NCBI GenBank assembly: GCA_963823345.1
Contig: CAWGLE010000004.1
Coordinates: 513,166 to 577,165, forward strand
Length of the DNA stretch: 64,000 bases
Direction of reading: 5' to 3'
Origin: Candidatus Sulfomarinibacteraceae bacterium
Lineage (GTDB): Bacteria; Acidobacteriota; Thermoanaerobaculia; Thermoanaerobaculales; Sulfomarinibacteraceae
A program made the position numbers and the translations under genes. The notes under the pieces were generated by a model. The model saw only the letters and a program-made list of their open reading frames with translations. It made no database searches and was not told where the DNA came from. Of the stretch, positions 1,471-52,178 are shown piece by piece (position 1 is the first letter of the stretch; every line of letters begins with the position of its first letter).

Positions 1471-1577
1471 GCATGGAATCGTAGGGTGGGCTTCAGCCCA
1501 CCATCAGAAGAGTGGACGTATGTGATGAACTCGAGGGGCTCGCTGCAGTTCCGAAGGTGGGCCAGGGCCCACCCTAC
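1471..1577. repeat. REPIN type 1, copy 1 (GTAGGGTGGGC..GCCCACC / GGTGGGCC..GGCCCACCCTAC)
   Basis: 107-bp element. It has two inverted GC hairpins with outward GTAG/CTAC heads (1481-1502 and 1556-1577). It is collinear with 10321-10427 (same length, same gcatggaatc leader) and related to 48195-48264. Confidence 0.8.
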
Positions 1578-1693
1578 CCATCGGACCTGGCCGCCCGGCG
1601 GCCAGGTCCTCGCCAGGGTTACGCGTCGGGATGTCGCCTCAGCGTCTTCGCGCCTTTGCGTTGAGATCCGAGATGTCTCCCGCGGTCCTGATG

Positions 1694-2239
1694 CTATTCG
1701 CCGGTCGCGATCAGCGCGCGATAGTCGTTCAACACCTCCGCGGCGTGGGTCTTGGGGTCGACGTCGGGATAGGTGACCAGGACGATGCCGTCGCCGCCGA
1801 CGAGATACGAGACGCGCTTGGCCATCGGGAGGAGGGCGCGAGAGGCGCCGACCCTTTTCGCCAACCCGTGGTCGCTGTCGGAAAGCAGCAGGAAGGGCAG
1901 CCCGTTTTTTTCGGCGAACTTCCGGTTCGCGTCCGGGGAGTCGTACGAAACACCGAAGACCTCGATACCCAGTGCCTGGAGTTCGTCCCAGCTGTCACGC
2001 AGCTGGTTGGCTTCGGTCGTTCAACCGGGGGTATCGGCCTTGGGATAGAAAAACAGCAGGAACGGCCGGCCCGTCAGGTTTTTGCTCGAGACGGTGGAAC
2101 CGTCGTGTGCAGGGAGTTCGAAATCGACGAATACCTCGCCTTCGGCAATCATCTCAGAGTCTCCTTCCGCCGACCCGGCGGGGGCGCCGGCGATCAATGC
2201 GACAGCGATCAGGATCGTGATGCAAGAAAGTGTCTTCAT
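1694..2239 (-). CDS. Secreted Bcp/AhpC-TSA peroxiredoxin with in-frame TGA at the peroxidatic Cys position (probable selenoprotein)
   Basis: The ORF track stops at TGA 2021-2023 after ...FLLFFYPKADTPG. The same frame continues without stops as TTEANQLRDSWDELQALGIEVFGVSYDSPDANRKFAEKNGLPFLLLSDSDHGLAKRVG...VLNDYRALIATGE* to TAG 1694-1696. The TGA therefore replaces Cys in the canonical PGCT motif. Signal peptide MKTLSCITILIAVALIAGAPAGSA starts at ATG 2239 (alternative ATG at 2275). Confidence 0.8.
1988..2006 (-). promoter_or_regulatory. Putative bacterial SECIS hairpin
   Basis: On the mRNA strand, 14 nt after the UGA: CCAGCUG-CGUGA-CAGCUGG (7-bp perfect stem, 5-nt loop containing GU). Confidence 0.55.
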
Positions 2240-2390
2240 GATGGAAAGGATAACAGCAGCGACGGGCCGATCCATTTCATCCTCGATCTTGACCGGCGGC
2301 GACGGGCCGCGCTAGCCTTCCGGTGCCGACTACAGCAACGAGTCCATCAGAAATGCGGGTTCGAGTCGCAGCGCGAGCGGAGGGAGCACC

Positions 2391-10525: not shown

Positions 10526-11827
10526 TCAATCGCGGTTGATGAGACGGACCGAACCCGCGGGCCCGTCCGTGACGCGGCCGACGACGGCGGCGCCGGGGAG
10601 TCGGCGGACGAGGGCCTCGGCGTGCTCGGGCAGGACAGAGGCGAGCAGCCCCCCCGAAGTCTGAGGGTCGAGACAGAGGTCCACCCGGAGGTCGTCAGCG
10701 CCCCCCTCGACTTCGAGCACGGACGCCACGCTCTCCCGGTTCTTGCCCGCCCCCGCCGGCACCAGACCGGTGGCCGCGGCATCGAGCGCCCCCGGCAGCA
10801 ACGGCAGCGCGGAAAGATCGATCTCGACCGCAATCCCCGAGGCCTCGGCCATCTCGGCCGCGTGGCCGGCGAGCCCGAACCCGGTGACGTCGGTGACCGC
10901 GTGCGGCGCGAAATCGTGCAGCGCATCGGCCGCCTCGCGGTTGAGGGTCGCCATCCACCGCAGGGCGGTCGAGAGGTGGGTGGGGTCGACCATCTCGGCC
11001 TTGGCTGCGGTGGTGAGGACCCCGGTGCCGAGTGGTTTGGTGAGCACCAGTGCGTCGCCGGTCAGTGCGCCGGCGTTGCGCCAGATCCGGTCGGGGTGAA
11101 CGGTGCCGGTGACCGCGAGGCCGTACAGCAGCTCCTGTCCCTCCACCGTGTGGCCGCCGGCGAGCACGCCGCCCGCCTCCGCGAGGGCCGAGAGCCCGCC
11201 GCGCAGGATCTCGGTCAAGGCTTCGCGTCCGAGCTTGGCGAGCGGGTAGCTGACCAGATTCATGGCGGCCAGGACCGTGCCGCCCATGGCCCAGACATCG
11301 GACAGGGCGTTGACGGCGGCGATGCGGCCGAAGGTGTAGGGGTCGTCCACCATCGGCGGGAAGAAATCGGTGGTGTGGATGATGGCGATCTCCGGCGATA
11401 CCCGCACGACGCCCGCGTCGTCGGCGTACTCGATGCCGACCAGCAGGTCGTCGGACTCGAGCCGCGGCAGACCGCACAGCACCTTTTCGAGCAGGCCCTT
11501 CGAGAGCTTGGCGCCGCAGCCGCCGTAGGCCGAACCGGCGGTCAGCTTGACCTCACGCTCGGCAGACACCGCATCGAGGGCGCTCGGCACCCAGCCTCCA
11601 GCGCGCCGCCGGAACACAGCTTGCGGTTCGAGGCCGATCGTTCCCAGGATTCCGGCGAGCGCTTCGGCCTCGGCGGCGCGAACCTCGAGCACAACCCCGC
11701 ACTGCGAACTCACCGACCGCGGCGCCGGCACCGTATCCACGTCGAGTCCGGCATCGCGGGCCGCCTTTTCAGCGCGCATCACCCGCTGCACGGTGCCGAA
11801 CACCACGAGGAGATCCCGCGCGCTCAA
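10526..11827 (-). CDS. selD: Selenide,water dikinase (selenophosphate synthetase) with N-terminal DUF3343-like extension
   Basis: 433 aa. TTG start with GGAGGAG SD. Residues ~95-433 align to SelD (..SAYGGCGAKLSKG.., TTDFFPPMVDDPYTFGRIAAVNALSDVWAMGG, DVTGFGLAGH, DPQTSGGLL), Cys form. The first ~90 aa (LLVVFGTVQRVMRAEKAARDAGLDVDTVPAPRSVSSQCGVVLEV) look like the small putative Se/S-carrier DUF3343 fold. Confidence 0.9.
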   Translation of the reverse strand: MSARDLLVVFGTVQRVMRAEKAARDAGLDVDTVPAPRSVSSQCGVVLEVRAAEAEALAGILGTIGLEPQAVFRRRAGGWVPSALDAVSAEREVKLTAGSAYGGCGAKLSKGLLEKVLCGLPRLESDDLLVGIEYADDAGVVRVSPEIAIIHTTDFFPPMVDDPYTFGRIAAVNALSDVWAMGGTVLAAMNLVSYPLAKLGREALTEILRGGLSALAEAGGVLAGGHTVEGQELLYGLAVTGTVHPDRIWRNAGALTGDALVLTKPLGTGVLTTAAKAEMVDPTHLSTALRWMATLNREAADALHDFAPHAVTDVTGFGLAGHAAEMAEASGIAVEIDLSALPLLPGALDAAATGLVPAGAGKNRESVASVLEVEGGADDLRVDLCLDPQTSGGLLASVLPEHAEALVRRLPGAAVVGRVTDGPAGSVRLINRD

Positions 11828-11855
11828 CGCTCTCCTCCGAGATTTCCCGTCGGGC

Positions 11856-11948
11856 GGGCGGGGATAAACCCCGCCCCTACGCTGCTCCGGGACATATACC
11901 GTACCCGAAAGCCGTAGGGGAGGGGTTTATCCCCTCCCTTTCGTTTTC
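11856..11948. repeat. REPIN type 2, intergenic copy (GGGCGGGGATAAACCCCGCCCCTAC ... GTAGGGGAGGGGTTTATCCCCTCCC)
   Basis: Two inverted hairpins with inward CTAC/GTAG heads and a 43-nt spacer. It lies between selD and the desulfurase gene. The same family is embedded in paralogues A, B and D. Confidence 0.8.
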
Positions 11949-12044
11949 GGCAGACCGCGAACCCGCGCACGAACGGCATTCCTTGGCGGCTCAGTCCTTG
12001 CCCAACAGCCCATAGCCCATAGCTCATTGCACAGGGTCCAACAC

Positions 12045-13202
12045 TCACGACGCTGCAGACATTCTGACCGCCTGTACCAGCGCGTCCACATCCGCCTCGG
12101 TGTTGAACGGCCCGACGCCGACCCGGATCGTGCCTTCGGGATAGGTGCCGATCCGCCGGTGAGCGGCGGGCGCGCAGTGGAGACCGGCGCGGACGCAGAT
12201 CCCGTGCTCGCGATCGAGGCGGGCCGCGAGCTCGCCCGAATCGATGCCGTCGACGCGGAACGACAGCACCCCGGTGTGCGGCGCCTCCCCGTTCCACCCG
12301 TACAGCGTCACCCTGCCGGTTTCGGCGAGGCCCGGGGCCAACCGCCCGAGCAGCCGCCGGGCGTGATCCTGAACTGCCTGCACCGAATGCCGCCGCAGCC
12401 ACGAGCAGGCCGCTCCCAGACCGGCGGCGCCGACGCCGTTGGGGGTGCCCGCCTCGAGCCGGTCGGGCAGATGCTCGGGCATCTCCTCGCTCTCCGAGAG
12501 CGAACCCGTGCCGCCCCGCACCAGCGGTTCGACATCGAACCCCGGCGCCAGCAGCAGCACGCCGATCCCGGGCGGTCCCAGCAGCCCTTTGTGGCCGGAG
12601 CACACGAGGGCGGCGGCTCCGAGGGTCGAAAAGTCGATACGCAGACTGCCCGCGGTCTGGGCGGCGTCGACCACCACCGGGACCGGCGCGACCGCGGCGG
12701 CGATCTCGGCCACCGGCAGCACGTTGCCCGTGACGTTCGAGGCGTGATTCAGCACCACCAGGTCGGTGGGGGCCTCGGAGACCCGTGCCGCCACATCGCG
12801 CGCACCGGGCACACCGTGCGGTCCGGGCCCCTCCACCACCACGACCTCGACGTCTCGATCGGCCTCCAGCCACCGCAGCGGCCGCATGACGGCGTTGTGT
12901 TCGAGGGCCGTCACCACGACCCTGCCCCCGCGCCCGAGGCGGGAGCTGAGCACCGTGTTGAGCCAGAAGGTGGCGCCCGATCCGAACAGGGTCCGCTCCG
13001 GGTCCCCGCCGAGCAGGGCAGCGACCTCTTCCCGGGCGCCCTCGATGGCGCGCGACGCCGCCACCGTCAGGCGGTGGCCGCCGCGCCCCGGGTTGCCCGA
13101 CGCCTCGGCCAGAAAGCGCACCATGGCGCCGGCGACGCCGGGCGCCTTGGGGAAGGCGGTGGCGCCGTGGTCGAGGTAGATGGGGGTCCGGGAGTCGCTC
13201 AC
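12045..13202 (-). CDS. Class V aminotransferase: cysteine desulfurase / selenocysteine lyase family
   Basis: GTG 13202 overlaps the yedF stop (GTGA). The translation VSDSRTPIYLDHGATAFP...NHASNVTGNVLP...CSGHKGLLGPPGIGVL...RAGLHCAP... has the PLP Lys and catalytic Cys motifs. The ORF-track 663-aa version is a run-through into yedF in another frame. Confidence 0.85.
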   Translation of the reverse strand: MSDSRTPIYLDHGATAFPKAPGVAGAMVRFLAEASGNPGRGGHRLTVAASRAIEGAREEVAALLGGDPERTLFGSGATFWLNTVLSSRLGRGGRVVVTALEHNAVMRPLRWLEADRDVEVVVVEGPGPHGVPGARDVAARVSEAPTDLVVLNHASNVTGNVLPVAEIAAAVAPVPVVVDAAQTAGSLRIDFSTLGAAALVCSGHKGLLGPPGIGVLLLAPGFDVEPLVRGGTGSLSESEEMPEHLPDRLEAGTPNGVGAAGLGAACSWLRRHSVQAVQDHARRLLGRLAPGLAETGRVTLYGWNGEAPHTGVLSFRVDGIDSGELAARLDREHGICVRAGLHCAPAAHRRIGTYPEGTIRVGVGPFNTEADVDALVQAVRMSAAS

Positions 13203-13819
13203 GGCCGCACGATCGACCCTGCTTCGGCGAGACGGGAGGCGATCTCGAGCATGTCGGTGACACGCCCCACACGCAGCCGGTCGGCGAGCTCGAAGAAGTT
13301 GAGGCAGGTGCCGCAGGCGATGATCTCGACTCCCGCCGCCGCGAGGGCCGCGAGGTCGTCGAGCAGCAGCGAGCCCTCGCAGCACAGCTTGACGCCGTCG
13401 TTGTAGAACAGGATCGCGTCGGGCGTGCGGTCGAGCTGGCTCTGGGTCTTGAGGAACGACCGCATGAGGAGGGCGCCGAGCTCGTCGTTGCCCGTGCCCA
13501 TGGTGGCGGCGGTGATCTGCACCACCCGCGGACCGGAAGAGGAGGGGGTTGCGGGGACCTCGCACGCCAACAGCTCTTCTTCGCCGGGGCGAGCACCGGC
13601 GGCGTCGGCGCCGGCGGTGATCTTCACCACGAAGCTCCCGTCGCCGCCCGGTTCGGTCTGCGTCCCGGCGCCGCGCGAGGTCGCGAACCGGGTCACATTC
13701 GAGCGGCTGAGGTCGTCCGCCACCCGCAGGATGATCTCGCGCTCGCCGGCATCCAGCAGGTCCCGCAGCTTTAAAACCGGACCCGGGCAGGCAAGATCGC
13801 GAACGTCGAGCTCTTTCAT
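13199..13819 (-). CDS. yedF: Selenium metabolism protein YedF-like (TusA/SirA domain + DsrE-like domain)
   Basis: ATG 13819 follows GGGAGG. MKELDVRDLACPGPVLKLRD.. carries the CPxP TusA motif. The C-terminal half ..VVQITAATMGTGNDELGALLMRSFL...GVEIIACGTCLNFF.. is DsrE-like. Confidence 0.8.
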   Translation of the reverse strand: MKELDVRDLACPGPVLKLRDLLDAGEREIILRVADDLSRSNVTRFATSRGAGTQTEPGGDGSFVVKITAGADAAGARPGEEELLACEVPATPSSSGPRVVQITAATMGTGNDELGALLMRSFLKTQSQLDRTPDAILFYNDGVKLCCEGSLLLDDLAALAAAGVEIIACGTCLNFFELADRLRVGRVTDMLEIASRLAEAGSIVRP

Positions 13820-13956
13820 CGAACCTCCCGTCCGGTAAGTGTAAACCCTCGCCGCGTGCTTTTTCTTCTCCCTTTTTCCTGGGTCGCACCGCAAGGCGCG
13901 ACCCAGGAAAAAGGGTGGGGTATGATGAAAGGCAGACCAAACAACTGGAGGTGACC

Positions 13957-15081
13957 ATGCTCGGTCGAGGCGTCCTGAGTCGCTTGCACACTCTGACGCA
14001 GGAGGAGGGTCTGACCCTCACTCTGTATGTGGACATCGATCAGAACAAACAAGCCAACCGGAAACGAGGCTTCGTGGTCCAGGCCGACGCCCTGCTCAAG
14101 AGCCTCAAGGCCGAGCACGGAGCGGACCGCAAGCTCGCCGACTCGGCCCGTCGCGCGCTCGATCTGGTCAAGAAGGCCAAACCGAACGGCCTGTGCGCCC
14201 TCGTGGTGGTTCACCTGCCGTCGCGAACTGCCGAGGTCCACCAGCTCAGGGTGCCGTTGGTGGCCCAGGCCTATTGGCGGAAGGGCGCCTTCCTGCGGCC
14301 GGTCGTCGAGGCGATGGACGAACACGAGCGCTACGGCGTCGTCCTCACCAGCACCCAGCGCGCCCGCCTCTTCACCGTTTCGATGGGCGAGATCGCCGAG
14401 CACGACGACCTCTTCTCCGACACCGGCCCGCGCACCCGGGCCCTCGGTTCGGACCAGTGGCGCTCCCAGAAACGGCACGAACGACGGCACGAGGAGGAGG
14501 TCACACTCCACGCCAAAAAGGTGATCGACGCCCTCCGCGATCTGTCGCTGCGCATCCCCTTCGACCGCCTCATCATCGCCGGCACCGCCAAGGCGACCGC
14601 CCAGCTCGAACGACTGCTGCCTCGCCGCCTCAAGGGCAAGCTGGTCCGCACCATCACGATGCCCATGACCGCGACCCCGAGGGAGGTGCTCGAAGGCATC
14701 CTCAAGGTCCAGGAGCGGATGGAGCGGGACGAGGAGTCCTCGCTGGTCGAGGCGGTGCTGGCCGAGCTCCACGACCGCGGTAAGGCGGTGGCCGGCTTCG
14801 CCGCCGTCCTCGACGCCGTCAACCAGGGCCGGGTCTGGACTCTCGCCTACAACAAGGGCTTCAAGACCACAGCCGGCGAGTGCGGCGACTGCAAGGCCTA
14901 CTCGCCGCACGCCCGCGGGCCCTGCGTCTACTGCGGCGGCGAGGTCAAACCGCTCTCCCAGCCCATCGACCGCCTCGGCCAGTCCGTCCTCGAGATGGGA
15001 GGCCGCGTCGAGGTCGTCGACGGCCCGGCGCGCACCGCGCTGGCCAAGAAAGGCGACATCGCGGCGTTGCTGCGGTACTGA
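13957..15081 (+). CDS. eRF1/Pelota-like (bacterial baeRF1-type) protein with inserted zinc ribbon
   Basis: ATG 13957 follows GGAGG. N-terminus ..LTLTLYVDIDQN..; central loop ..TRALGSDQWRSQKRHERRHEEE..; CGDCKAYSPHARGPCVYCGG (CxxC..CxxC); C-terminal ..GDIAALLRY, which is like eRF1 domain 3. Assignment is from memory of family signatures. Confidence 0.55.
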   Translation: MLGRGVLSRLHTLTQEEGLTLTLYVDIDQNKQANRKRGFVVQADALLKSLKAEHGADRKLADSARRALDLVKKAKPNGLCALVVVHLPSRTAEVHQLRVPLVAQAYWRKGAFLRPVVEAMDEHERYGVVLTSTQRARLFTVSMGEIAEHDDLFSDTGPRTRALGSDQWRSQKRHERRHEEEVTLHAKKVIDALRDLSLRIPFDRLIIAGTAKATAQLERLLPRRLKGKLVRTITMPMTATPREVLEGILKVQERMERDEESSLVEAVLAELHDRGKAVAGFAAVLDAVNQGRVWTLAYNKGFKTTAGECGDCKAYSPHARGPCVYCGGEVKPLSQPIDRLGQSVLEMGGRVEVVDGPARTALAKKGDIAALLRY

Positions 15082-15156: not shown

Positions 15157-16317
15157 GTGATTCAACGAAACAGAGTTCTCGGCAGGGTTGTGGATCTTCT
15201 CGAGAGATTCCCGGTCGTCGGCATTATCGGCGCGCGCCAGGTCGGAAAAACCACCCTCGCCCGCCAACTGGCGGCCGGCGATTTCGACAAGGTCACGATC
15301 TTCGACCTCGAGGACCCCCGGGACCTCGCCCGTCTGACCGACCCAATGCTCGTGCTCCGGGATCTTCGCGGCCTCGTGGTCATCGACGAGATTCAGAGAA
15401 TGCCGGAGCTGTTTCCGGTGCTCAGAGTCATGGCGGACCGGGCCGGGCGACCGACCAGGTTCTTGATCCTGGGCAGCGCTTCTCCGCACCTTTTGCGTCA
15501 GAGCTCGGAGTCTCTCGCAGGCAGGATTTCGTATCTGGAGCTGAGCGGATTCAGTCCGGAGGAAGTGGGTATCGATCGTCTTCGAGAGCTGTGGATTCGG
15601 GGTGGGTTTCCGAGGGCCCTTCTCGCTCGCTCGGACAGGCACAGCTTCGAGTGGCGTCTCGAGTTCATCCGCACTTTTCTCGAGCGGGACCTGCCGCAGC
15701 TCGGGATCTCGATTCCGGCGGCCACGCTCAGGAGACTGTGGACGATGCTGGCCCATTCCCACGGCCAGATTTTGAATGTCTCCTCCTTCGCGCGCAGCTT
15801 CGGCGTGGCGGACACCACGGTTCGCCGATACATCGATGTCCTCACGTCCACCTTTGTCGTGCGCCAGCTCCAGCCGTGGCACGAAAACCTCCGCAAACGG
15901 CAGGTCAAATCGCCGAAGGTGTACCTCGCCGACACCGGGCTCCTGCACGCGCTCTTGAACCTCCCCGGCCTCGAAGACGTCGAAAGCCACCCGCAATCGG
16001 GTGCGTCGTGGGAGGGTTTCGCAGCTGAAATCATCCGCACGAGGCTTGGCGCCCGCCGCGACGAGTGTTTTTTCTGGGCGACGCATGCAGGGGCCGAGAT
16101 CGACCTGGTCGTGGTTCGAGGAAGGTCCAAGCTGGGCTTCGAGTTCAAGCGGACGGTAGCTCCTACGCTGACGAGATCCATGCACATCGCACTCGAAGAC
16201 CTCGGGCTCGACTCGATCGATGTCATCCATGCTGGAGACGAGACCTTTCCGCTCGCCGACAGGATTCGTGCGGTGCCCCTGTCGAGAGCCCTCGACGACC
16301 TGATCCCCTTGAACTGA
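15157..16317 (+). CDS. AAA-type ATPase with DUF4143-like C-terminal domain
   Basis: 386 aa; Walker A GARQVGKTTLA, ..VVIDEIQRMPELF.. and the C-terminal half typical of the 'ATP-binding protein, DUF4143' family. Confidence 0.75.
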   Translation: MIQRNRVLGRVVDLLERFPVVGIIGARQVGKTTLARQLAAGDFDKVTIFDLEDPRDLARLTDPMLVLRDLRGLVVIDEIQRMPELFPVLRVMADRAGRPTRFLILGSASPHLLRQSSESLAGRISYLELSGFSPEEVGIDRLRELWIRGGFPRALLARSDRHSFEWRLEFIRTFLERDLPQLGISIPAATLRRLWTMLAHSHGQILNVSSFARSFGVADTTVRRYIDVLTSTFVVRQLQPWHENLRKRQVKSPKVYLADTGLLHALLNLPGLEDVESHPQSGASWEGFAAEIIRTRLGARRDECFFWATHAGAEIDLVVVRGRSKLGFEFKRTVAPTLTRSMHIALEDLGLDSIDVIHAGDETFPLADRIRAVPLSRALDDLIPLN

Positions 16318-16731: not shown

Positions 16732-19722
16732 TCAGAACGACAACCGCACCCCCAGGCGGATGGTCCGCGGGTCCTGCCACGAGCGCGTGGTGTTCCAGGC
16801 CGGATTGAGCGGTGGTCGATCGGGGTCCCCGGGCACGATTGCCGGATTGGGTTCGCCGGTGAACCAGTCGACGGGCTGGTAGTCCTCCCAACCGTTGTAG
16901 ATCCAGTCGTAGCGCAGCCAGCGGGCGGTCTCGCCCTGGCGGTTGAAGACGTTGAAGACGTCGACCAGCAGGTTGAGCTCGAGACCATTGCCCAGCTTGA
17001 CGGGATACCCGAGGTGGATATCCGCTTCCCACTCGTCGTCGGTGCGGCCGAAGGCGCCTCGTTCCGAAAGGTAGTACTCCCAGTTGTTGTACCAGTAGCA
17101 ATAGCCCATGGCGGTGATGGGGGTGCCCGAACGGTAGTAGGTCGAAAGGCCGGTCGTGAGCCCGAAGTCGAAGCGGTAGATCCCGTCGAACTTGAACTGC
17201 CACGGGCGGTCGTTGGACAGGAGGCCGTCGTTGTTGACCGAGAAGTCGGCGTAATCGTAGGCCGAGTTCAAATTGGGGTCGAGCTGACCGGTCGAGGCCT
17301 GGAAGTTGCCGTCGTAGTTGCCCTCGAGGCGCGACCACATGGCCGAGGCGAGGAACTGGAAGTTGTTCGAGAAGCGCTTCTTCAGCGCGAGCTCGACGCC
17401 GGTGAACTGCCGTTCTGGCTTTGGGATTTCCTTGGTGTGGCAGTCGATGCCGCCGCCCGGACATTCGGTGAAGCCGCCGGGATAGGCGTAATAGACGGCC
17501 TGGTCGTAGCTGTGAGTCATCAGCCCCTCGCCCGGGTTGCCGATGTAGTAGGTGTAATCGGTCGTCAGGGCGTCCTCGACGATGCGCTCGAGGTTGCGCC
17601 GGATGAAGGTCAATCCGATCGCGTAGTTCGGCGATACCTCGAACTCGGCGCCGAGCGCCGACTCCGACAGGTACTGACCCCTGGTGTTCGGGTCAACTGG
17701 AGAGTAGTAGCCACCGGGGAAGACGCGGGCGGCTCTGGGTGCTTCGCCCGCGGGCGGCTGCGCGAAATCCCACTGGTCCTCGGAGAAGTTGTACGTCTGG
17801 ACCGACCAGGCGCCCCCTCCGAATGATCGGATCACGATGTCCACCGGGATGGTCTCGTAGAAGTACCCCCAGTGGCCGAAGATCTTGGACCTGCCGTTGC
17901 CGAGGGCGTCCCACACGAAACCGAGCCGCGGCGCCCAGTTGTCGTCGATGTCGAGCTGCACCGTACCGGCGTTGTTGTAGAGCTTTTGCTGCGACCACCG
18001 CACCCCGAGATCGATCGAGAGGTTGCTTGTGACCTGCCACCGGTCCTGGAGGTAGGCGGCGAAATTCTCGGTCGGCATTTCCCGGAAATTCTGCTTCACG
18101 ATGTCGTCAGGAGTCGCCTGTTCGGGTTCGATCGGGCCCGAGGTCCCGTAGGAATGCCGATAGTAGTACTGGTGTTCGTTGTTCTCGCCGCAGTAACGCA
18201 CGTCGGGGTTGCAGATGAACCGTCCGACGTTGGCGCCCACCGGGCCCGATCGCGTGGAGATGTCGATGATTGCCAAATCCTCGTACTCGCCGCCGATCTT
18301 GAGCTCGTGGTTGCCCGCGAGATCGCCCACGAACCACGAGAGATCGGCGTTGTACTGCCGTCGTCCGAAGTCTTCTTCGCTATAGCCTCCCCACCCTGAT
18401 ACCACACCCGCCCATCCGGCCGGAATGGTGCCGTCGCCGAAGGGGTCGGTGTAGTCGAAATAGCCGGTGAGGTCCCTCCCCGGTCCCTGCATCTCCAGCT
18501 TCTGGTTGTGGCTCGCGAGGCGGGCGCTGAGCACGACGTTCTGGCCGAACACGCTGTCGTAGTTGATGGCGAAGTCGGTGCCGCCCTGGAGAAAGGTCTG
18601 GAGATAGGCGGTCGGCTGATCGGAGAGCCAGTAGGGGTTTGCACCCGAGGTCTCGTTCGGGTTGCCGAACACCGAGCCCGTCAGCGACTGGTTGGAGTCT
18701 GGCCGCCATGTCAGCTTGAAGGCGAAGAGGTCCTGCGTGACGTCCCACGGGAACTCTTCGCCGGCCATCGCGGCCCCCGGGTTCACCGCCCCGTAATCCT
18801 CCAGGGCCTCGTTGGTGTCGGAGTTGTCGACCCTGTCGTAGGCGGCGAAGAACCAAAGACGGTCCTTGACAATGTAGCCGCCGAGATCGGCGCCGTAGTC
18901 AGACCGCACCACGCCCACGGTCTTCGAGGTGAAGGTGGCGCTGCCCTGCTCCGCCTCGCCGGTGAGCGGGGCCCTTAGCGCGTCCGAGTCGTAGTAGCCG
19001 AAGACGTCGCCGTGGAACTGGTTGCCGCCCGAGCGTGTGATGACGTTGATCAGCCCGCCGGTCGAGTGGCCATACTCTGCCGAGTAGGCGCCGGACTTGA
19101 CCTGGACCTCGTCGATGAACTCGAAGTTGAGATCCATGCCCTGCTGGCCGCGCTCGATCTCGGTGGTGTTGGCGCCGTCGATGTAGTAGGCGTTCTCCGC
19201 GCCGGTGGAGCCGTAGAATGTCGTTCCGGAGAGATCGTCCTGAGCTCCAGGTGTCACCTTCGCGACTGATGCGTAGTTGCGGTCCGTCGGCAGATCGAGG
19301 AAGAAGTCCATCGACACATCGGTGCCGAGCGTCGTGTCGCTGGTGTTGACCAGCGGCGACTCGGAGGTGACCATGATCTCGCCGGTAAACGCAGCCTCCA
19401 GAGCGACGTCGAGCCGCACCGTGGTGTCGATCCCGACCTTGATGTTGGCCTGTTGCTGCGTCTGGTAGCCCGCCAGGCTCAGAGTCGCTGAGTAGGTCCC
19501 GGGCGGCAGGAGTAGCAGCTTGAAGACGCCGTTGGCGTCCGAAACCGTCGAGTGGTTTCCGGGAAGGGCGGCAGAAGCGAGACTGACCGTCACCCCGGGC
19601 AGGGCAGCACCCGATGCATCCGACACCTTGCCTTGAATATCACCGTGAGTGGTCTGTGCCGCGGCGCCGCCGGCCACCACCACGATCACGGTCGCGAACA
19701 TCACAGCGGCCGCGTGTCTCAT
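16732..19722 (-). CDS. TonB-dependent receptor with N-terminal carboxypeptidase-regulatory-like domain
   Basis: ATG 19722 follows GGGAGGAGGG. Signal peptide MRHAAAVMFATVIVVVAGGAAAQ; ..GDIQGKVSDASGAALPGVTVSL..GTYSATLSLAGYQT..; plug and barrel; C-terminal ..LGVRLSF. Confidence 0.85.
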   Translation of the reverse strand: MRHAAAVMFATVIVVVAGGAAAQTTHGDIQGKVSDASGAALPGVTVSLASAALPGNHSTVSDANGVFKLLLLPPGTYSATLSLAGYQTQQQANIKVGIDTTVRLDVALEAAFTGEIMVTSESPLVNTSDTTLGTDVSMDFFLDLPTDRNYASVAKVTPGAQDDLSGTTFYGSTGAENAYYIDGANTTEIERGQQGMDLNFEFIDEVQVKSGAYSAEYGHSTGGLINVITRSGGNQFHGDVFGYYDSDALRAPLTGEAEQGSATFTSKTVGVVRSDYGADLGGYIVKDRLWFFAAYDRVDNSDTNEALEDYGAVNPGAAMAGEEFPWDVTQDLFAFKLTWRPDSNQSLTGSVFGNPNETSGANPYWLSDQPTAYLQTFLQGGTDFAINYDSVFGQNVVLSARLASHNQKLEMQGPGRDLTGYFDYTDPFGDGTIPAGWAGVVSGWGGYSEEDFGRRQYNADLSWFVGDLAGNHELKIGGEYEDLAIIDISTRSGPVGANVGRFICNPDVRYCGENNEHQYYYRHSYGTSGPIEPEQATPDDIVKQNFREMPTENFAAYLQDRWQVTSNLSIDLGVRWSQQKLYNNAGTVQLDIDDNWAPRLGFVWDALGNGRSKIFGHWGYFYETIPVDIVIRSFGGGAWSVQTYNFSEDQWDFAQPPAGEAPRAARVFPGGYYSPVDPNTRGQYLSESALGAEFEVSPNYAIGLTFIRRNLERIVEDALTTDYTYYIGNPGEGLMTHSYDQAVYYAYPGGFTECPGGGIDCHTKEIPKPERQFTGVELALKKRFSNNFQFLASAMWSRLEGNYDGNFQASTGQLDPNLNSAYDYADFSVNNDGLLSNDRPWQFKFDGIYRFDFGLTTGLSTYYRSGTPITAMGYCYWYNNWEYYLSERGAFGRTDDEWEADIHLGYPVKLGNGLELNLLVDVFNVFNRQGETARWLRYDWIYNGWEDYQPVDWFTGEPNPAIVPGDPDRPPLNPAWNTTRSWQDPRTIRLGVRLSF

Positions 19723-20057: not shown

Positions 20058-21227
20058 ATGAGCGGCAAAATGGAATTTATACCTCGTTTTTTTCATCCGC
20101 CGGATCAGAGTTTCTTTCTTTTCGGGCCGCGGGGCACGGGCAAGTCGTGCTGGCTCGTGCACACCTATTCCAATGCACTGGTGGTGAATCTCCTCGAGCC
20201 GGATGTCTATCGCGAGATGAGCGCGCGACCCGAACGACTGTCACAACTGGTTCTCGCGGACTCCGATCGAAACCCGGTGGTCATCGACGAGGTCCAGCGG
20301 GTTCCGGAGCTGCTCAACGTGGTTCACGATCTCATCGAACGGCGTCCGGAGATTCATTTCGTCCTGACCGGGTCGAGCGCGCGCAAGCTTCGTCGCGGCG
20401 GCGTGGATCTGTTGGCCGGGCGCGCGCTCCATCGTTCTCTGCACCCGTTCATGGCGGCCGAACTCCCCGATTTCGACCTCCAGGAGGCTCTGGTCCGGGG
20501 ATTGCTGCCCATCGTTGTCGCGGCGCCGCAACCTACCGACGTCTTGAAGGCGTACGCCACCCTGTACTTGGAGGAGGAAGTCCGACTCGAGGGATGGGCC
20601 CGCAACGTCGGTGACTTCGCCCGCTTCCTCGAGGCAGTGAGTTTTTCCCACGCCTCGGTTCTCAATGTCAGCAATGTCGCTCGCGAGTGCCAGGTCGAAC
20701 GCAAGACGGTCGCGGGTTATCTGGAGGTTCTCGAAGACCTCCTTTTGTCGTTCAGGGTTCCCGTGTTTTCACGACGGGCTCGCCGGAAGACAGCAGCCCA
20801 CCCGAAGTTCTATTTTTTCGACGCCGGCGTCTACCGTTCGCTGCGTCCCCGGGGCCCACTCGATCGCCCCGAGGAGATCGACGGCTGCGCGTTCGAAGGG
20901 CTTGTGGCCCAACATCTCCGGGCATGGATCGACTATTCGGGCAACGAGTGTGACCTCTTCTACTGGCGGACCCAGGCTGGTGTCGAGGTGGATTTCGTGG
21001 TTTATGGCGAAGGGGGTTTTTGGGCGGTCGAGGTCAAGAACACAGCGACGGTCAGACCACACGACCTTCGGGGCCTCAAGAACTTTCGCGACGATTATCC
21101 CGAATGCGAACTGATCTTCGTTTACCGGGGGGCTCAACGCCTTCTGGTCGATGGCGTTCTCTGCGTGCCGGGTGAAGAGTTTTTGCGGGGTATTCAGCCG
21201 GGCAAAAATATCGAGACACTTGACTGA
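20058..21227 (+). CDS. AAA-type ATPase with DUF4143-like domain (second copy, divergent)
   Basis: ATG 20058 or 20070. ..FFLFGPRGTGKS.. Walker A, ..VVIDEVQRVPELL... Candidate promoter TTGACG(20010)-17 nt-TATTTT(20033). Confidence 0.75.
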   Translation: MSGKMEFIPRFFHPPDQSFFLFGPRGTGKSCWLVHTYSNALVVNLLEPDVYREMSARPERLSQLVLADSDRNPVVIDEVQRVPELLNVVHDLIERRPEIHFVLTGSSARKLRRGGVDLLAGRALHRSLHPFMAAELPDFDLQEALVRGLLPIVVAAPQPTDVLKAYATLYLEEEVRLEGWARNVGDFARFLEAVSFSHASVLNVSNVARECQVERKTVAGYLEVLEDLLLSFRVPVFSRRARRKTAAHPKFYFFDAGVYRSLRPRGPLDRPEEIDGCAFEGLVAQHLRAWIDYSGNECDLFYWRTQAGVEVDFVVYGEGGFWAVEVKNTATVRPHDLRGLKNFRDDYPECELIFVYRGAQRLLVDGVLCVPGEEFLRGIQPGKNIETLD

Positions 21228-23898
21228 AATTCCGGAGTGCCCGCCAAGGCGGCCCGCCGCTCATTCACCACTCCGGCACCTCGGCCCATCCCGGGAACGG
21301 ACCGACCTCGATCTTCCAGCCGGTAGAGGATTCCTCGTCCCGGACGACGCGGAGGTTTGTGAGGGTCTTGAGCTTGGCGATCAGCTCGTCGTGCGGCAGG
21401 GTGTGGAGCGGCGGCTTCGAGAGGTCGGGCATGGGCCAGACTCGAGAGGTATCGTCGATGCCCGACGACGACGAGCCAGGCGTTGTCGGGGGAGACGAAC
21501 TTGTAGCCGATCGCGCCCTCTGGCCGAGGAGGAGGTGAGGTGTTGTCCGTCCGATCCGGCCGACCTGGATCGTGCCGTCCGATTCGACCCGCGACCCAGA
21601 TCGTCGCCGTCGGGGCTGATCGAGGGATTGCCCGAAATAAGAAAATCAAGGTCTCGAGCGCCGTCGGTCCTCACGTCGAAGAGCTTTGTCGGCTCGGCAC
21701 CGGTTCATACCGCGAATCGGTGTCCCAGCAGGAGGGCCCTCGGCGGTCGGCGGTCATCGACATCGACGAGTGCCGCCGCTGGGGACCCGATGACTTCTTC
21801 GTACGTCCCGGCGTCGAGGTCCCATCGCAGCAGGCCGTTCGCACCGCTGTGTAAAGGCTGCTTTCGTCCACAAATGCGAGATGGACCGCCGCGTACCCCT
21901 CGTAGCCCTCCGGGTCCACGGGCTGTTCGAAGACCCGCACCTCGTCCGTGTCGAGGTCCCACACCCGAAGCGTCGCCTGGCCTTCCGATTGGGCGCTCGC
22001 CGCCGCCACCAGCCGCCCGCTCGGCGAGAAGCCGCCGGCGACCAGCGCTCGCTGGCAGGAAAACCGAAGAGATTCCGGGCCTCTCCACGGTCACCGAGAG
22101 CAGGAAGCTGCTGCGGCCGTACTCAGCGCCAGCACGTACCGAACGGTCGGGTCGACGGTCATTCATGTGTCCGACAGCTCCGATTCCGGTGGCAACATCA
22201 GGTCGACGATGTCGTCTGGGTGTTTCCGGGCACCGGCCAGAGCCGCACCCGGGTTGCCGGGTGATTCACCGAACAGTCGATGGCGACAAGGAAACGACCG
22301 TCACCGGTGAAGCCCTGCTCTACCAGCCCTTGATGACGATTGGGAGGGGGTCTCGGAGCGGCCACAACCCGTTCACTTTGTCGACGTCCGTCGCGCAATC
22401 CAGTCTCCGTGGGGTTGAAGCGCATGGCGAAGCTGGTGGTCTGGCGGAGCTGCAACGGTTGGCGTGGCGGATCGCCGCGAGGTCCCACAATGTCACGGGG
22501 TACCCGGATAACGAGTATTACGATGGCCCGACGCCCCGCGGGTCCGGGACGAGGCTATCGCTCGGACGCCCTCCGGCCGCCGCATTCGTTTACGGGGCAA
22601 CCAGGAGCCGACCGTCCAGGGACCACAGGATGATCTCGCCGCTGCTGTCGTCGCGAGAAGAATTCGCTCCGTCGCGCCCCAGATTTCGACGAACAACACC
22701 GTCTGACGAGTGGCGGCCGAGCAGCGTGTCGGACACGTCTTCGATGACCGGCAGAGGGCGGGAATATACGCCGTTCCCCTTGGAGTAGAGCCATGCATTC
22801 CCCCGCGGATCGAAGATGCTCGTGGACTGGTGCCGACGGCGCGAAAGTCGACCGTGCCGAGGTCTTCGGCCTCGCCGTCCGGCAGCTTCCACCGGACGAG
22901 CTTGAGCGGCCACGGCTCGCCGGCTGGGGGTGAGGATCGCGCGCCGACCTCAGCGAGGAGGTGCTGCTCGCCCACCTGCCACCACGCTCGGCCGCCGAGC
23001 TCGATCGTGGCGACGAGATCGCCCCGCGGCATCGACCACACCCGCACGCGGGTCTCGCTGTTGTGGCCGGTGACGAGAAAATCGTCACGGCTCCAACCAC
23101 ATTGGATCGGATTGTTGGCAGAAACCGCATGACCGCCGAGGACGATCGGACGGCCTCCGGCCTTCTCGTGGACCAGCACGTCCTGATTGACGATTCCCCG
23201 TCCCGCGAGCCACTGCCCGTCGGGGCTGAAGCAGGAGCCCGCGATCTGTCCCCGGGTGAAATGGCGCGGGTCGAGCACCCTGACCGGCGGTCCCGCCCAC
23301 AACGCCCGCACCGCAAACAGGCGCGCTTCACGCGAGTCTGCGAGCTCGAGGCTCGAGGTCGCGTAGGCGAGCGCCTCGGTGGGGTCCTTCTCGATCTGCA
23401 CCTGGGCCAGGGCGAGCAGCTTCGAGGCCTCGGCGCGGCGGGTCTCGAGGACGCTGCGGCGCCAGAAGGTGCCGACAAACGGCTGCCGATGACCAGGGCC
23501 AGCGCGATTGCTGCCGCTACCGCGATCCGGCGCCGCCGTCTCCGCCGCGTCGCGAGGGAGGTCATGGCGGCAGCGAAGGCCTCCTCGAGCTCGGTGAGGC
23601 CGCCCGGGTAGCGCTCCCGCCATACGGCAAACTCGCGGTAGGCGGAGCCGGTCCACAGCATGTCGTCGGTGCGGCCGTGCTCGTCCCAGGTCTTGCGCCG
23701 CCTGCCGCAGCTGGTCGCGCAGCTGGGCGGCGTCGGCGTCCTGGGTCTGCCAGCGCACGAGGCGCGGCCAGTTGGCGAGCAGCGACTCGTGGATGATTTC
23801 GACGCGGCGGGTGGGTTCCTGTTCGTCTTCGTGGATCTCGTACGAGGTCAGGAGCCGGGCGTCGATGAGTTCTCGCAGCACTTCTTCTGCGGCAGAGC

Positions 23899-23964
23899 GG
23901 GAGGGGATAAACCCCTCCCCTACGGCTTTCCTTGCGTTCGTAGGGGCGGGGTTTATCCCCGCCC
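23899..23964. repeat. REPIN type 2 embedded in paralogue A coding region
   Basis: GGGAGGGGATAAACCCCTCCCCTAC-ggctttccttgcgttc-GTAGGGGCGGGGTTTATCCCCGCCC. On the minus strand it is translated as ..AGINPAPTNARKAVGEGFIPS... Confidence 0.8.
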
Positions 23965-24993
23965 TGCGATGGTCCCCGTCAAAAATTGATAGCAACTCGT
24001 TCCATTCTCGGACCGCCCGGGTGCCTTCGGCGGTGACGAGGTTGCGGAAGAGCTCGCGGACGATGGGAATTCGTTCGGCACCGATGCGGTCGATGGTGGC
24101 TTCGGCGTGTTGGGCCAGCGCGCCGGCGACGCCGCCGATCTCCTGGTACGCTTCGCGGGTGAGGAGACCGCTCTCCTTGTCGCGCCGCTCCCACAGGCGC
24201 GCAGCCGCAAACGCCAGCAACGGCAGGGCGCCGCGCTCGCCCTCGACCTCGGCCAGCATCTCGTCCACCAACTCGTCGTCCTCGAAGCGGTAGCCGCACT
24301 GCAGCGGCGGGCTGGGACAGGGCGCGTCGGAGAGCGGCGCCGGTCGGTGGGTCGAGCAGCGTGAGGTCGGCGAAGACCGGCGCGAGGGCTTCGTGGTCGC
24401 GACACCGATCAGGAAGTCGTCCCGCATGCGACAGCAGCACGAAGCACGTCGGCCTCGAGCGCGAACGCGGCGAGCAGTGTCCGCGAACCTCTGCTGTATC
24501 GTCGGCGGAGTTCTGAGTGAACAGCTCCTCGAACTGATCGACGATCACCAGAGTGCTCGGTCGTCGCTTGCCGCCACCGCGCGACGACGTCGACCGCCAC
24601 GTCCGGTCGTCGCGGCCGCGAGCACGAGTCCATCGCCTCGGCGTCACCGGCCATCGCGGCGCCAACGCCCGTCCGCAGCGACGCTGACGGGTCGTTGCCG
24701 GGTGTGCAGATCGGACGGTGCCCCAGCCGGGCCGTGCGGTCGCAATCAGGCCTGCACGAAGGAACGAAGTCTTGCCTGCGCCCGGAGGCCCGACCAACCC
24801 GAGCATCCTCGGCGGCCCCTCGAGCTTGCGCCACATCTGCTCGACCTCGGCCTCGCGGCCGAAGAAGTACTCGGCATCAGCTTCGGTGAAGGATGCGAGA
24901 CCGGGGTAGGGGTGGAGGTCGTCGGCGCCCTCGACTCGGAGGGTCACGTCCTCGAGGGCGCGGGTGAGAGTGTGGGCGGAGTTGTATCGGTCT

Positions 24994-25797
24994 TCACGGT
25001 CCTTTCTTGACGGCCTTTTGGATCACCGCTGCCCACGGCGTGTCGGGGACTTTGGCAGGCTCGGATCGCACACCGTCCCACACGCTCTGGCGGGAGTCGA
25101 AGCTCTTGATGCCGTCGGGCTCGACCATCTCGGCGAGCACCACGCCCGCTGCGTAGACGTCGGCCCTGGCATCGAGCGTCTGCCCCGCGGCCTGCTCGGG
25201 CGACATGTAGGCGGGCGTGCCCGCGACCGTGCCACCGCCCTCGGTCTCCTGGCGGGCGAGGCCGAAGTCCATCACCACGACTCGTCCGGCGCGGGTGAGC
25301 ATGATGTTTTCAGGCTTGATGTCGCGGTGGATCAGGCCGGCCTTGTGGATGGCTTCGAGGCCCGCCAGGAACTGCGAGGCGATGTCCTGGGCTTCCTTGA
25401 GCTCGAGGGGGCCGCGCTCCTGCAGCACGCCGAGCAGCGTCGCCCCGTCGACGTACTCCATCGACACCAGCTCGCGGCCCTCGACCTCGATCAGGTCGAA
25501 GATCCGGCAGACGTTGGGCGACACCACCTCGCGCGCGGCACGCACCTCCTGGCGCAACAGCTCGAGGCGCCGCTCGGATTTGAAGAACTCGGGCCGCAGC
25601 GCCTTCAGCGCCACCTCGACCCGCAGCTTGAGGTCGAAGGCGTGCCACACCTCGCCCATCCCGCCGCGGCCCAGCATCTCGAGGATCTGGTAGCGCTCAC
25701 CCAGCACCTGGCCGGGCGCGAAGCCCTTCATCCCCTCCGGCAGGTCGAGGGTCTCGCCCTCGCCCTCGGTGCGGGTGGTGAGGTCGTGGTCAGTCAT
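24994..25797 (-). CDS. Stand-alone Hanks-type Ser/Thr kinase ORF (intact N-terminal remnant of paralogue A)
   Basis: 267 aa with GRGGMGEVW, VALK, HRDIKPEN, DFG and GTPAYMSPE. It terminates at TGA 24994-24996 after an extra base near 25001 relative to paralogue B. Confidence 0.6.
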   Translation of the reverse strand: MTDHDLTTRTEGEGETLDLPEGMKGFAPGQVLGERYQILEMLGRGGMGEVWHAFDLKLRVEVALKALRPEFFKSERRLELLRQEVRAAREVVSPNVCRIFDLIEVEGRELVSMEYVDGATLLGVLQERGPLELKEAQDIASQFLAGLEAIHKAGLIHRDIKPENIMLTRAGRVVVMDFGLARQETEGGGTVAGTPAYMSPEQAAGQTLDARADVYAAGVVLAEMVEPDGIKSFDSRQSVWDGVRSEPAKVPDTPWAAVIQKAVKKGP

Positions 25798-25831
25798 CGT
25801 ATACCCACACTCGCGACATGACTGGATCATG

Positions 25832-25879
25832 TGCAGGCGGGACGCCTGCACCACACACCCGGCAGCCGGGACGGCTGCC
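25832..25879. repeat. Two REP hairpins with 8-bp stem and GGA loop
   Basis: TGCAGGCG-gga-CGCCTGCA (25832-25850; also at 42080-42098) and GGCAGCCG-gga-CGGCTGCC (25861-25879). Confidence 0.75.
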
Positions 25880-25972
25880 CCACAACGGACTATCGGCCGT
25901 CTCGGTCGGGCACGTGCTCCACGGCCCAGGGCGCGGCCGTCGCGACAAAAACTCATCTGAGGTATCCTCGAC

Positions 25973-26412
25973 GTGGAGGCCCCGATCATGAACTCGAACG
26001 TTGGTCCGGCCGAGCGCATCACCGCAGTGCTGTCGGCTCGTCCGGAGATCCTCGAAGCGTACCTCTTCGGGTCCGGGCGCGAGGTGAGGGCCAGGCGCAC
26101 AGCGATATCGACATCGCTGTTTTCATCGATGAAGCGAAGGTCGAACCGGGCCCCTTCGGATACCGAGCAGAGCTGACATCGGCGCTGATGAGCGGCCTCG
26201 GCACCAACGCCGTCGATGTCGTGGTGCTCAACCGCGCGCCGCCGCTTCGTGTACCACCGGGTCCTGCGCGACGGCTGCGTCTGTGTTCACGCGACCTTCG
26301 TGCAACCACGGTTCGCGAGGGCAGGGCCCTCTCACGCCACTGCGATTTCGTGCCGCAGCTGGCGAAGATCGACGCCATACTAGGTGCTCGAGCGCCGTTC
26401 TCGGAGAGGTAG
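25973..26412 (+). pseudogene. mntA: MntA-type minimal nucleotidyltransferase (antitoxin), copy 1, frameshifted
   Basis: ..RITAVLSARPEILEAYLFGS.. (frame 2) then ..GEGQAHSDIDIAVFIDEAKVEPGPFGYRAELTSALMSGLGTNAVDVVVLN.. (frame 1). There is a 1-nt deletion near 26071-26080 relative to copy 2, plus a +1/-1 pair around 26245-26290. Confidence 0.65.
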
Positions 26413-26414
26413 TC

Positions 26415-26845
26415 GTGGGCCCGGGTGAAATCGACGTCCTGATCATACGTCGCCACCTGGCCGCTCTCCGCGAGTCGCTCCAGGTCCTCGCCGCTCGCAA
26501 TGAGGTCTCTCTCGAGGAACTCGACGCCGACACCGAGCTGCTGTGGGTCGTGGAACGCGGTCTCCAGCTCTGCGCACAAAACGCGCTCGACATCGCGACC
26601 CACATCGCGGCAAGCAGGGGCGGGACGTCCCGGACTACGCCAGCGCCATCGACGAGCTCGGGCGCCTCGACGTGCTCGACCATGATTTCGTACGCGAGTT
26701 TCGCAACGTTGCGGGCTTCCGGAACGTGCTGGTGCACGGCTATCTCGATGTGGACCTGGATGTCCTGTACACGCTCCTGCACGACCGTCTCGGAGACTTC
26801 GAGTCCTTTGCGGCCCGAATCGAGACCTACCTCGAAAACCTCTGA
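26415..26845 (+). pseudogene. hepT: HepT-type HEPN (DUF86) toxin, copy 1, frameshifted
   Basis: GTG 26415 lies 2 nt after the mntA stop. The N-terminal half is in frame 0 (..LWVVERGLQLCAQNALDIATHIAA..). The C-terminal half is in frame 2 (..DVPDYASAIDELGRLDVLDHDFVREFRNVAGFRNVLVHGYLDVD..; Rx4H motif). The shift is near 26605-26625. Confidence 0.65.
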
Positions 26846-31559: not shown

Positions 31560-31585
31560 GGATGACTCGAGAGTCGATTCCCAGT

Positions 31586-31686: not shown

Positions 31687-31722
31687 ATTTCGTTGAGTCG
31701 CCTCGGGCGTTCGGGCGGAAAC

Positions 31723-31750: not shown

Positions 31751-31757
31751 TCGCGAC

Positions 31758-36923: not shown

Positions 36924-36925
36924 CC

Positions 36926-52174: not shown

Positions 52175-52178
52175 GGCG

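Follow-up and report, generated by a model that had tools for sequence, protein, structure and literature searches.

An in-frame TGA at the peroxidatic position of a Bcp/PrxQ-type peroxiredoxin gene from marine Acidobacteriota: a probable selenoprotein with a predicted export signal

The locus described here raises the question of whether a TGA codon that interrupts a peroxiredoxin (Prx) gene ends that gene, or encodes selenocysteine (Sec). The DNA analysed, referred to here as the window, is the whole stretch of 64,000 nucleotides from a Candidatus Sulfomarinibacteraceae contig. On its minus strand (sequence read over positions 1500-2500), the Prx frame reads ...FYPKADTPG, meets a TGA at 2023-2021 and then goes on as TTEANQLRD..., such that translation of 2275-1694 gives MDRPVAAVILSIMKTLSCITILIAVALIAGAPAGSAEGDSEMIAEGEVFVDFELPAHDGSTVSSKNLTGRPFLLFFYPKADTPG, a stop, TTEANQLRD...ALIATGE and a final stop. 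The initial annotation had placed the end of the ORF at this TGA and had counted 108 stop-free codons beyond it; both proved correct when the sequence was read again, the downstream stretch ending at a TAG (1696-1694). There are two candidate start codons. The first, ATG 2275, has a GAGG 5 nt upstream and is the one chosen by gene callers, and the second, ATG 2239, opens with MKTLSC..., like the MKxK/R starts of the orthologs. The precursor would comprise 193 aa from the former, or 181 aa from the latter. We conclude that the locus is very probably a genuine Sec-peroxiredoxin gene, encoding one continuous ~181-aa precursor of the Bcp/PrxQ type with Sec at the position of the peroxidatic Cys, and that gene callers halve it because the Sec codon is an in-frame TGA. 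The gene is called as an 84-aa fragment in the Logan assemblies, and the JGI translation of one ortholog (P0001) has W at the TGA codon, in keeping with the initial reading of a mis-truncated Sec-peroxiredoxin, which we uphold. The positions of all features are collected in Table 1.

Table 1. Features of the Prx gene and of the selenium gene cluster, numbered from the first nucleotide of the window
Feature	Position	Strand	Basis
Full gene of the probable Sec-peroxiredoxin, Bcp/PrxQ type	1694..2275	-	PF00578, alignment, PDB matches
Predicted Sec-type (translocon) signal peptide, MKTLSCITILIAVALIAGAPAGSA/EG (slash, cleavage)	2165..2239	-	Sequence inspection
Active-site motif P-K-A-D-T-P-G-U, equivalent of PxxxTxxC, with TGA at the peroxidatic position	2021..2044	-	Alignment, orthologs
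Asn codon at +5 from Sec, resolving-Cys position of Cys orthologs (CTKEAC)	2006..2008	-	Alignment
SECIS-like hairpin, CCAGCUG-CGUGA-CAGCUGG	1988..2006	-	bSECIS criteria; 7/7 Sec orthologs
Conserved catalytic Arg codon, R142 from Met-2239, downstream of TGA	1814..1816	-	Alignment column invariant
SelD, Cys-type GGCGAK, fused to N-terminal DUF3343 Se/S-carrier domain	10526..11827	-	TIGR00476
Class-V aminotransferase, cysteine desulfurase/selenocysteine-lyase-like (SclA/EF2568 family)	12045..13202	-	TIGR01977, NF040779, PF00266
YedF, selenium metabolism, TusA-like domain with CPGP motif	13199..13819	-	TIGR03527

When the TGA was read as Cys, the read-through product matched the full AhpC/TSA domain (PF00578, E=1.6e-31; 109.3 bits, cutoff 26) over residues 34-153, a span that reaches from one side of the UGA to the other. 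Aligned with 15 full-length homologs, the sequence has its TGA in the peroxidatic-Cys (Cp) column of TPGC, exactly where the initial annotation had put it (the Cys of PGCT), and at the codon level TGA in the Sec forms stands opposite TGC or TGT in the Cys forms. The peroxidatic column is C in 118 of the best 120 database homologs; among these 120, all 118 motif-bearing Cys homologs are of the C..C type (CTKEAC, with a peroxidatic and a resolving Cys). P0001, which is also among the best 120, reads W..N, and we attribute its W to a gene-calling artefact since the corresponding DNA (L001) carries TGA at that codon. The best-matching subfamily, as far as the sequence can tell, is Bcp/PrxQ, though at a score below the equivalog level: in NCBIfam, the Bcp thiol peroxidase NF006960 scores best (103.9 bits, under the equivalog cutoff of 140), the cutoff of the PrxQ model NF053650 is not reached (86 vs. 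260 bits), and the PDB matches are all Bcp/PrxQ (best 3drn, 1.9e-22). Two other identities were considered and rejected, namely PrxU (NF040737, 36.5 bits vs. a cutoff of 270) and the Prx-like thiol:disulfide oxidoreductases (UxxC/UxxU), the motif here being TPGUTTEAN with no Cys at +3. The resolving Cys of the CxxxxC motif is missing from the window Prx (UTTEAN), and the Sec orthologs carry N, T, K, or S at that position. The hairpin stem described below starts on the last base of the Asn codon found there in the window.

One explanation that has to be weighed is that the TGA is a nonsense change from TGC/TGT in an exported Bcp, or an assembly or sequencing error, in which case at most a 72-84-aa fragment would be made. 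The 84-aa fragment given by the gene callers fits such a pseudogene, as does the fact that selA, selB, and tRNA-Sec were not seen in the 64-kb window. However, whether the codon is in truth TGC or TGT, a possibility raised in the initial annotation, could be checked indirectly: two independent Logan assemblies of SRA runs (SRR25510171 and SRR25893881) keep the TGA, and they represent slightly different strains, each ~98.5% identical to the window with several amino-acid differences. Strains also occur in SRR25510183. Six syntenic orthologs, which show 65-70% identity and have diverged to dS ~1, carry the same TGA (L001, L068, L114, L210, L227, and L237, of which L114 is Candidatus Sulfomarinibacter kjeldsenii and L068 an Acidobacteriota MAG). 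At that dS, the 100 codons after the TGA give a dN/dS of 0.10-0.25, similar to the 0.07-0.35 obtained for the 45 codons before it, and the 108 codons after the TGA contain no further stops or frameshifts. The catalytic Arg codon lies within this region under purifying selection, and the residue is invariant. Moreover, the TGA coincides with a C-to-N change at the resolving position and, in all seven sequences, with the Q/R and S residues that create the hairpin. Because the TGA is conserved and the downstream dN/dS is low, the Prx half after the TGA is translated. It is this conservation and downstream constraint, rather than the hairpin, that constitutes the decisive evidence, and we accordingly regard a pseudogene or an error as all but excluded.

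Genome and metagenome contigs were also searched with a degenerate DNA pattern, (F/Y)(F/Y)PKAxTPG-TGA-T, in which the hairpin was not required. This TGA-anchored pattern gave at least 120 matches in genome contigs and at least 120 in metagenome contigs, and among the matches listed, an open Prx frame of 95-125 codons continues past the TGA in 225 of 241 loci. The codon could be translated without being Sec if TGA were reassigned in this organism to Trp or Gly (code 4 or 25), and the W that the JGI pipeline gave for P0001 would agree with this. However, that call comes from a contig of 1 kb and is an artefact typical of metagenomic gene calling, and TGA terminates 27 of the 33 confidently called genes in the window, including Pfam-verified full-length ones. 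A scan of the window for further in-frame TGAs of coding character brought up only non-coding frames of GC-rich genes. In addition, Prx chemistry would be lost with W or G as the peroxidatic residue. For these reasons, reassignment has next to no probability.

The initial annotation had also pointed to a hairpin just past the TGA, and its coordinates were confirmed. It begins 14 nt downstream of the TGA and consists of a 7-bp stem and a 5-nt loop, CGUGA (G at position 2, followed by U), with an energy of -10.5 kcal/mol and a UGA-to-loop spacing of 21 nt. The bSECIS model calls for an apical loop of 3-9 nt, a stem of 4-16 bp, a G at loop position 1 or 2, a UGA-to-loop distance of 16-37 nt, and an MFE of -7.5 kcal/mol or below (PMC13188914). 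The window hairpin passes 4/4 bSECIS criteria, but their specificity is weak, as 12.8% of the TGA trinucleotides in the window, which has 65% GC, pass as well, and 4.1% do so with equal or better energy. The criteria are passed by 6/7 Sec orthologs and also by 1/3 Cys orthologs.

Across the orthologs, the stem is kept in 7/7 Sec sequences, and 98% of its cells are paired. The sole change at a paired position, from A-U to G-U, comes about by a Q-to-R codon change. Synonymous sites in the stem (CTG, GAC, AGC) are invariant, and the loop wobble position (CGU/CGG) and flanking codons vary. Double compensatory changes were absent among the seven sequences, and the single-sequence folding z-score of the hairpin is only -1.7. 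Averaged over 226 loci (the 225 Sec-Prx among the matches listed plus the window gene), the 40 nt after the UGA are the most stable segment of the gene (-12.1 vs. about -8.3 kcal/mol), and the stem sequences differ among Sec-Prx subfamilies. We rejected folding energy as a discriminator between Sec and Cys forms, as GC-rich Cys orthologs fold comparably. A scan of the whole window at Rfam gathering thresholds returned no matches, a result that is uninformative for bacterial SECIS elements. Taken by itself, the hairpin is consistent with a SECIS element, and is not decisive evidence.

The presence of selD in the window had been offered as support for Sec. The gene is indeed there (368.8 bits against TIGR00476, cutoff 125) and is supportive, but Sec decoding is only one of the traits that SelD serves, along with those of selenouridine and Se cofactors, and selD is therefore no proof of Sec decoding. 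Of the two genes clustered with it, one encodes an SclA-like protein (353 bits against TIGR01977, just under the cutoff of 377, and 251 bits against the SclA model NF040779) that is likely to be the selenium donor to SelD, and the other encodes YedF (178 bits against TIGR03527, cutoff 110). The selD/SclA-like/yedF cluster shows that the organism activates selenium; the SclA-like protein, YedF, and the DUF3343 domain are a general selenium-delivery set. By Pfam/NCBIfam annotation, neither selA nor selB is among the ~50 genes of the 64-kb window, and ARAGORN found no tRNA whatever in it. Nor did 248 related loci, 1.6 Mb in all, yield a tRNA-Sec, which is uninformative.

These observations bear on a further explanation, in which the Sec pathway plays no part in reading through the UGA. 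The codon would be decoded by a near-cognate tRNA for Cys or Trp, or by Cys-tRNA(Sec) when selenium is scarce, giving a Cys- or Trp-containing protein at low yield, and the hairpin would be only a pause or a stimulator of read-through. Such decoding would accord with the weak specificity of the hairpin criteria, and with a window in which selA, selB, and tRNA-Sec were not seen. Against it stand the selenium cluster just described and the identity of the wider family with TGA at Cp, which is the published Sec-Prx family. Furthermore, the TGA has long been maintained although TGC is a single mutation away, which implies that the recoded residue confers an advantage, and the TGA and the loss of the resolving Cys go together. 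We consider read-through without Sec to be highly unlikely.

The gene order DUF481-MscS-Prx-HU-hyp150-M1 peptidase-hyp310-PEPCK is common to the window and the Sec subclade (hyp150 is a Cys-free secreted protein of 150 aa), and positional Cys orthologs occupy the same DUF481-MscS-Prx-HU-M1 peptidase-PEPCK neighbourhood. No thioredoxin-like (TlpA/ScsB-like) partner gene was found among the conserved neighbours of Prx. With regard to the level of strain variation, the HU and aminotransferase genes were matched exactly in public strains, and the truncated 84-aa/72-aa ORFs and PEPCK differ by a few residues.

In an unrooted tree, the Sec forms make up one clade, sister to a clade of putatively exported Cys forms, and what is seen is apparently a single Sec/Cys switch within one syntenic locus. 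The segment that follows the active site reads NQLRDSW in the Sec forms vs. ACELRDAW in the Cys forms, and the Sec-specific Q/R and S are exactly the residues whose codons form the stem. We lean towards the view that the gene encodes a periplasmic "1-Sec" Prx: in one marine-sediment lineage of Acidobacteriota, an exported Bcp/PrxQ would have exchanged Cys for Sec, lost its resolving Cys (now N/T/K/S), and acquired a SECIS element together. For the SECIS element, changes in two codons of the NQLRDSW segment (E to Q/R, A to S) would have sufficed. As the tree is unrooted, it is the trend in the literature that favours the Cys-to-Sec direction; five independent Cys-to-Sec conversions have been inferred for the Sec-Prx family (Zhang et al., 2006; PMC1794560).

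The initial annotation had proposed a signal peptide, and a comparable segment recurs across the orthologs. By rules of thumb, the N-terminus has a positive n-region, a hydrophobic core of ~17 aa, and a small-x-A cleavage motif. An n-region, a hydrophobic core of 12-17 aa, and a [GST]xA/[EGD]G junction are present in 7/7 Sec orthologs, and also in the syntenic Cys orthologs. Given this conserved n/h/c architecture and junction, periplasmic export is the most likely fate of the protein, and we regard it as probable. A lipoprotein signal was rejected, there being no lipobox Cys in register. Alternatively, the N-terminus could be a membrane anchor or the product of a wrong start, with the enzyme in the cytoplasm or at the cytoplasmic face. 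In favour of this, some database Cys homologs are 145-158 aa long and lack the extension, the start is ambiguous between 2275 and 2239, and the signal peptide was recognised by rules of thumb. On the other hand, the three signal elements recur not only in all seven Sec sequences but in most of the close Cys orthologs (171-191 aa), and the upstream open frame is conserved. Past the hydrophobic segment, the sole Met ahead of the Prx domain lies in ...SEM-IAEG, and a start there would cost the protein nothing but its signal. There is also a precedent for export of a BCP/PrxQ, namely PprX (PMC3322552). We therefore think it unlikely that the Sec-peroxiredoxin stays on the cytoplasmic side.

Export of a selenoprotein had been described as unusual in the initial annotation, a view that did not stand. 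MccSep of Geobacter is a periplasmic selenoprotein for which cleavage of the signal peptide has been verified experimentally (bioRxiv 10.1101/2025.11.18.688581), and signal-like N-termini occur in 12-18 of the 225 Sec-Prx loci among the matches listed (~5-8%), in several phyla.

We infer the following course for the insertion of Sec into the window Prx, its export, its reductant, and its catalytic cycle. The hairpin would recruit SelB-GTP-Sec-tRNA(Sec), by which the UGA would be recoded, the selenophosphate being supplied by the selD/SclA-like/yedF cluster. The signal peptide would then direct the precursor to the Sec translocon and be cleaved off after ...GSA. In the periplasm, the mature enzyme of ~156 aa would reduce H2O2 or organic hydroperoxides in a selenolate-to-selenenic-acid cycle. 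As Asn takes the place of the resolving Cys, an external thiol would have to reduce the selenenic acid, and would do so directly (a 1-Sec mechanism). The probable donor is a thioredoxin-like protein of the periplasm, with a DsbD/ScsB-type transporter feeding it, as in the case of PprX in Caulobacter. If the "1-Sec" reading is true, the envelope of these anaerobes holds a peroxide defence based on selenenic acid, with a periplasmic reductant to recycle it, and the locus is a compact natural example of the birth of a SECIS element inside a coding sequence.

The finding is mainly a correction of annotation, the gene being split or truncated in public assemblies, and it leaves knowledge of selenoprotein families and mechanisms unchanged. 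Hundreds of Sec-Prx genes suffer from this error in MAGs of Acidobacteriota, Acidimicrobiia, Planctomycetota, Marinimicrobia, and other groups, and the TGA-anchored DNA pattern recovers such mis-annotated genes directly. Beyond annotation, the syntenic pair of Sec and Cys orthologs could be used to probe what selenium buys a Prx outside the cytoplasm, a possible benefit being resistance to irreversible over-oxidation where ATP-dependent repair is absent. The clade could also show how a SECIS element arises within coding sequence.

Among known peroxiredoxins, E. coli Bcp (PRK09437) and the structures 3drn, 5enu, 2cx3, 5iiz, and 3gkk have the same catalytic set of Pro, Thr, Cp, and Arg as the window Prx. 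E. coli Bcp is a thioredoxin-dependent thiol peroxidase of the atypical 2-Cys type with a CxxxxC motif, whereas the window Prx has UxxxxN, with Sec for Cys, and is predicted to be exported. PrxU of Eubacterium acidaminophilum resembles the window Prx in having Sec at the peroxidatic position, which was reportedly shown experimentally by Sohling and co-workers in 2001, but it belongs to another Prx subfamily (a 233-aa model). Another counterpart is the Sec-peroxiredoxin family (COG1225/PF00578, TxxU), which has been an established prokaryotic selenoprotein family since 2005 (Zhang, Fomenko & Gladyshev; PMC1088965) and is listed as such in a 2026 review (PMC13188914); selenoproteins have also been recorded in Acidobacteria (Zhang et al., 2006; PMC1794560). 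The family and the window Prx are alike in their AhpC/TSA fold, the UGA at the Cp of PxxxTxxC, a SECIS-type hairpin downstream, and widespread Cys homologs. The window clade differs in its cleavable-looking signal peptide, a feature of ~5-8% of the collected loci among the matches listed, and, in the window Prx, in the Asn at the resolving-Cys position. The hairpins differ too: the window loop lies 21 nt past the UGA, over the R-D codons, and the commonest hairpin of the family has a GUU loop at ~17 nt.

PprX of Caulobacter crescentus is a BCP/PrxQ of the cell envelope with an N-terminal signal sequence, and is reduced by way of ScsB to TlpA to PprX (Cho et al., 2012; PMC3322552). By this description, it is likened to the window Prx as a BCP/PrxQ-type enzyme with an N-terminal signal sequence, predicted in our case, and as one that depends on a periplasmic thioredoxin-like reductant, a need that we propose for the window Prx as well. 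Unlike the window Prx, which has Sec and no apparent resolving Cys at +5, PprX is a Cys enzyme with its resolving Cys at another position, and whereas ScsB and TlpA reduce PprX, no TlpA/ScsB-like gene adjoins the window Prx. MccSep of Geobacter sulfurreducens, a multiheme cytochrome c polysulfide reductase of the periplasm recoded by UGA/SECIS (bioRxiv 10.1101/2025.11.18.688581), is unrelated to the window Prx in fold and chemistry, but it is likewise a selenoprotein with a signal peptide (in the window Prx a predicted one), and likewise broken in annotation at its TGA, in this case into two genes. Set beside these systems, the window gene appears to be a most likely exported variant of Sec-Prx, devoid of the resolving Cys, in Thermoanaerobaculia-like marine Acidobacteriota near Ca. 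Sulfomarinibacter. The family to which it belongs is already well known, and to it the clade adds the modest twists of a predicted export signal and the loss of the resolving Cys.

In the selenium-delivery operon of the window, the selD product carries a fused DUF3343 domain (PF11823, Se/S carrier) at its N-terminus. This SelD is of the Cys type (GGCGAK) and is itself no selenoprotein. Adjoining yedF in divergent orientation is a gene of the baeRF_family10, which also gave weak matches to the NCBIfam ribosome hibernation factor families; its placement beside the selenium cluster may be coincidental. Two AAA_14/DUF4143 ATPase paralogs lie on either side of a TonB-dependent receptor gene, in which no in-frame TGA was seen, and the receptor matched the NCBIfam TonB-receptor models, including those with a selenocysteine motif, only weakly.

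Elsewhere in the window, a series of very large paralogs in which a Ser/Thr kinase is joined with an nSTAND1 NTPase and WD40 repeats lies within 22493-41861, a region in which both GC and GC3 are below those of the remainder. Three genes of toxin-antitoxin type are also present, one for a HepT-like RNase and two for PIN-domain proteins, and housekeeping genes lie in 49390-63366, where TamA/TamB and NAD kinase are followed by the start of the dcw cluster.

Coordinates of features in the window
Feature	Position	Strand	Remarks
Canonical terminator of the opposing MscS gene	1421-1441
Perfect palindromes, 8-bp arms	1485-1502, 1556-1573		GGTGGGCC/GGCCCACC; convergent intergenic region after Prx
Perfect palindrome, 13-bp arms	1583-1609		same intergenic region
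yedF, SclA/EF2568-like class-V aminotransferase, selD	10526-13819	-	selenium-delivery operon
baeRF_family10 gene	13915-15081	+	bacterial archaeo-eukaryotic release-factor-like family; PF18854, 3.7e-31
AAA_14/DUF4143 ATPases (2)	15190-16317, 20157-21227	+
TonB-dependent receptor	16732-19704	-	~990 aa
Kinase-nSTAND1-WD40 paralogs	29433-31559, 31758-34832, 38499-41861
Apparent fragments	22493-24427, 24994-25854, 37431-37946
HepT-like RNase/PIN-domain genes (3)	36926-37357, 43444-43863, 44251-44646
TamA/TamB	49390-55919
mraW	57536-58474		dcw cluster
PBP/FtsI-like gene	58809-60533		dcw cluster
Mur ligases (2)	up to 63366		dcw cluster

Downstream of the stop codon of the peroxiredoxin (Prx) gene, the convergent intergenic region holds GC-rich perfect palindromes (1485-1609), every one of which lacks a T-tract.

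The public protein of the Sec-type ortholog L001 (P0001, nucleotides 413-958; JGI 3300059814, Ga0589500_02659544) carries tryptophan at the Sec codon, and the contig was therefore translated with the TGA=Trp code, which is a second type of mis-annotation besides truncation. A Cys-type ortholog found in the same gene order as in the window (L244, 6001-6534; ERZ25039500 contig_7840) has, in the RNAfold minimum free energy structure, a hairpin CGUUCCGCG-ACG-CGUGGAGCG located 3′ of its TGC codon. The hairpin scan scored it, 24 nt past this codon, with a stem of 8 bp and a loop of 5 nt, which falls within the published bacterial SECIS rules for loop, stem, spacing and energy. It may be a SECIS, fossil or pre-adapted, or else a product of chance, the base rate for passing these rules being ~13%.

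The residue five positions after the Sec or peroxidatic Cys, where the resolving Cys is located, is Cys in all 118 close Cys homologs among the best 120 homologs of the window protein. Among the 241 Sec-Prx pattern matches listed, it is Cys in only 85, and is otherwise Ser (56), Arg (24), Gln (18), Asn (14) or another residue. Judged from these sequences, loss of the resolving Cys seems to be common once Sec is present.
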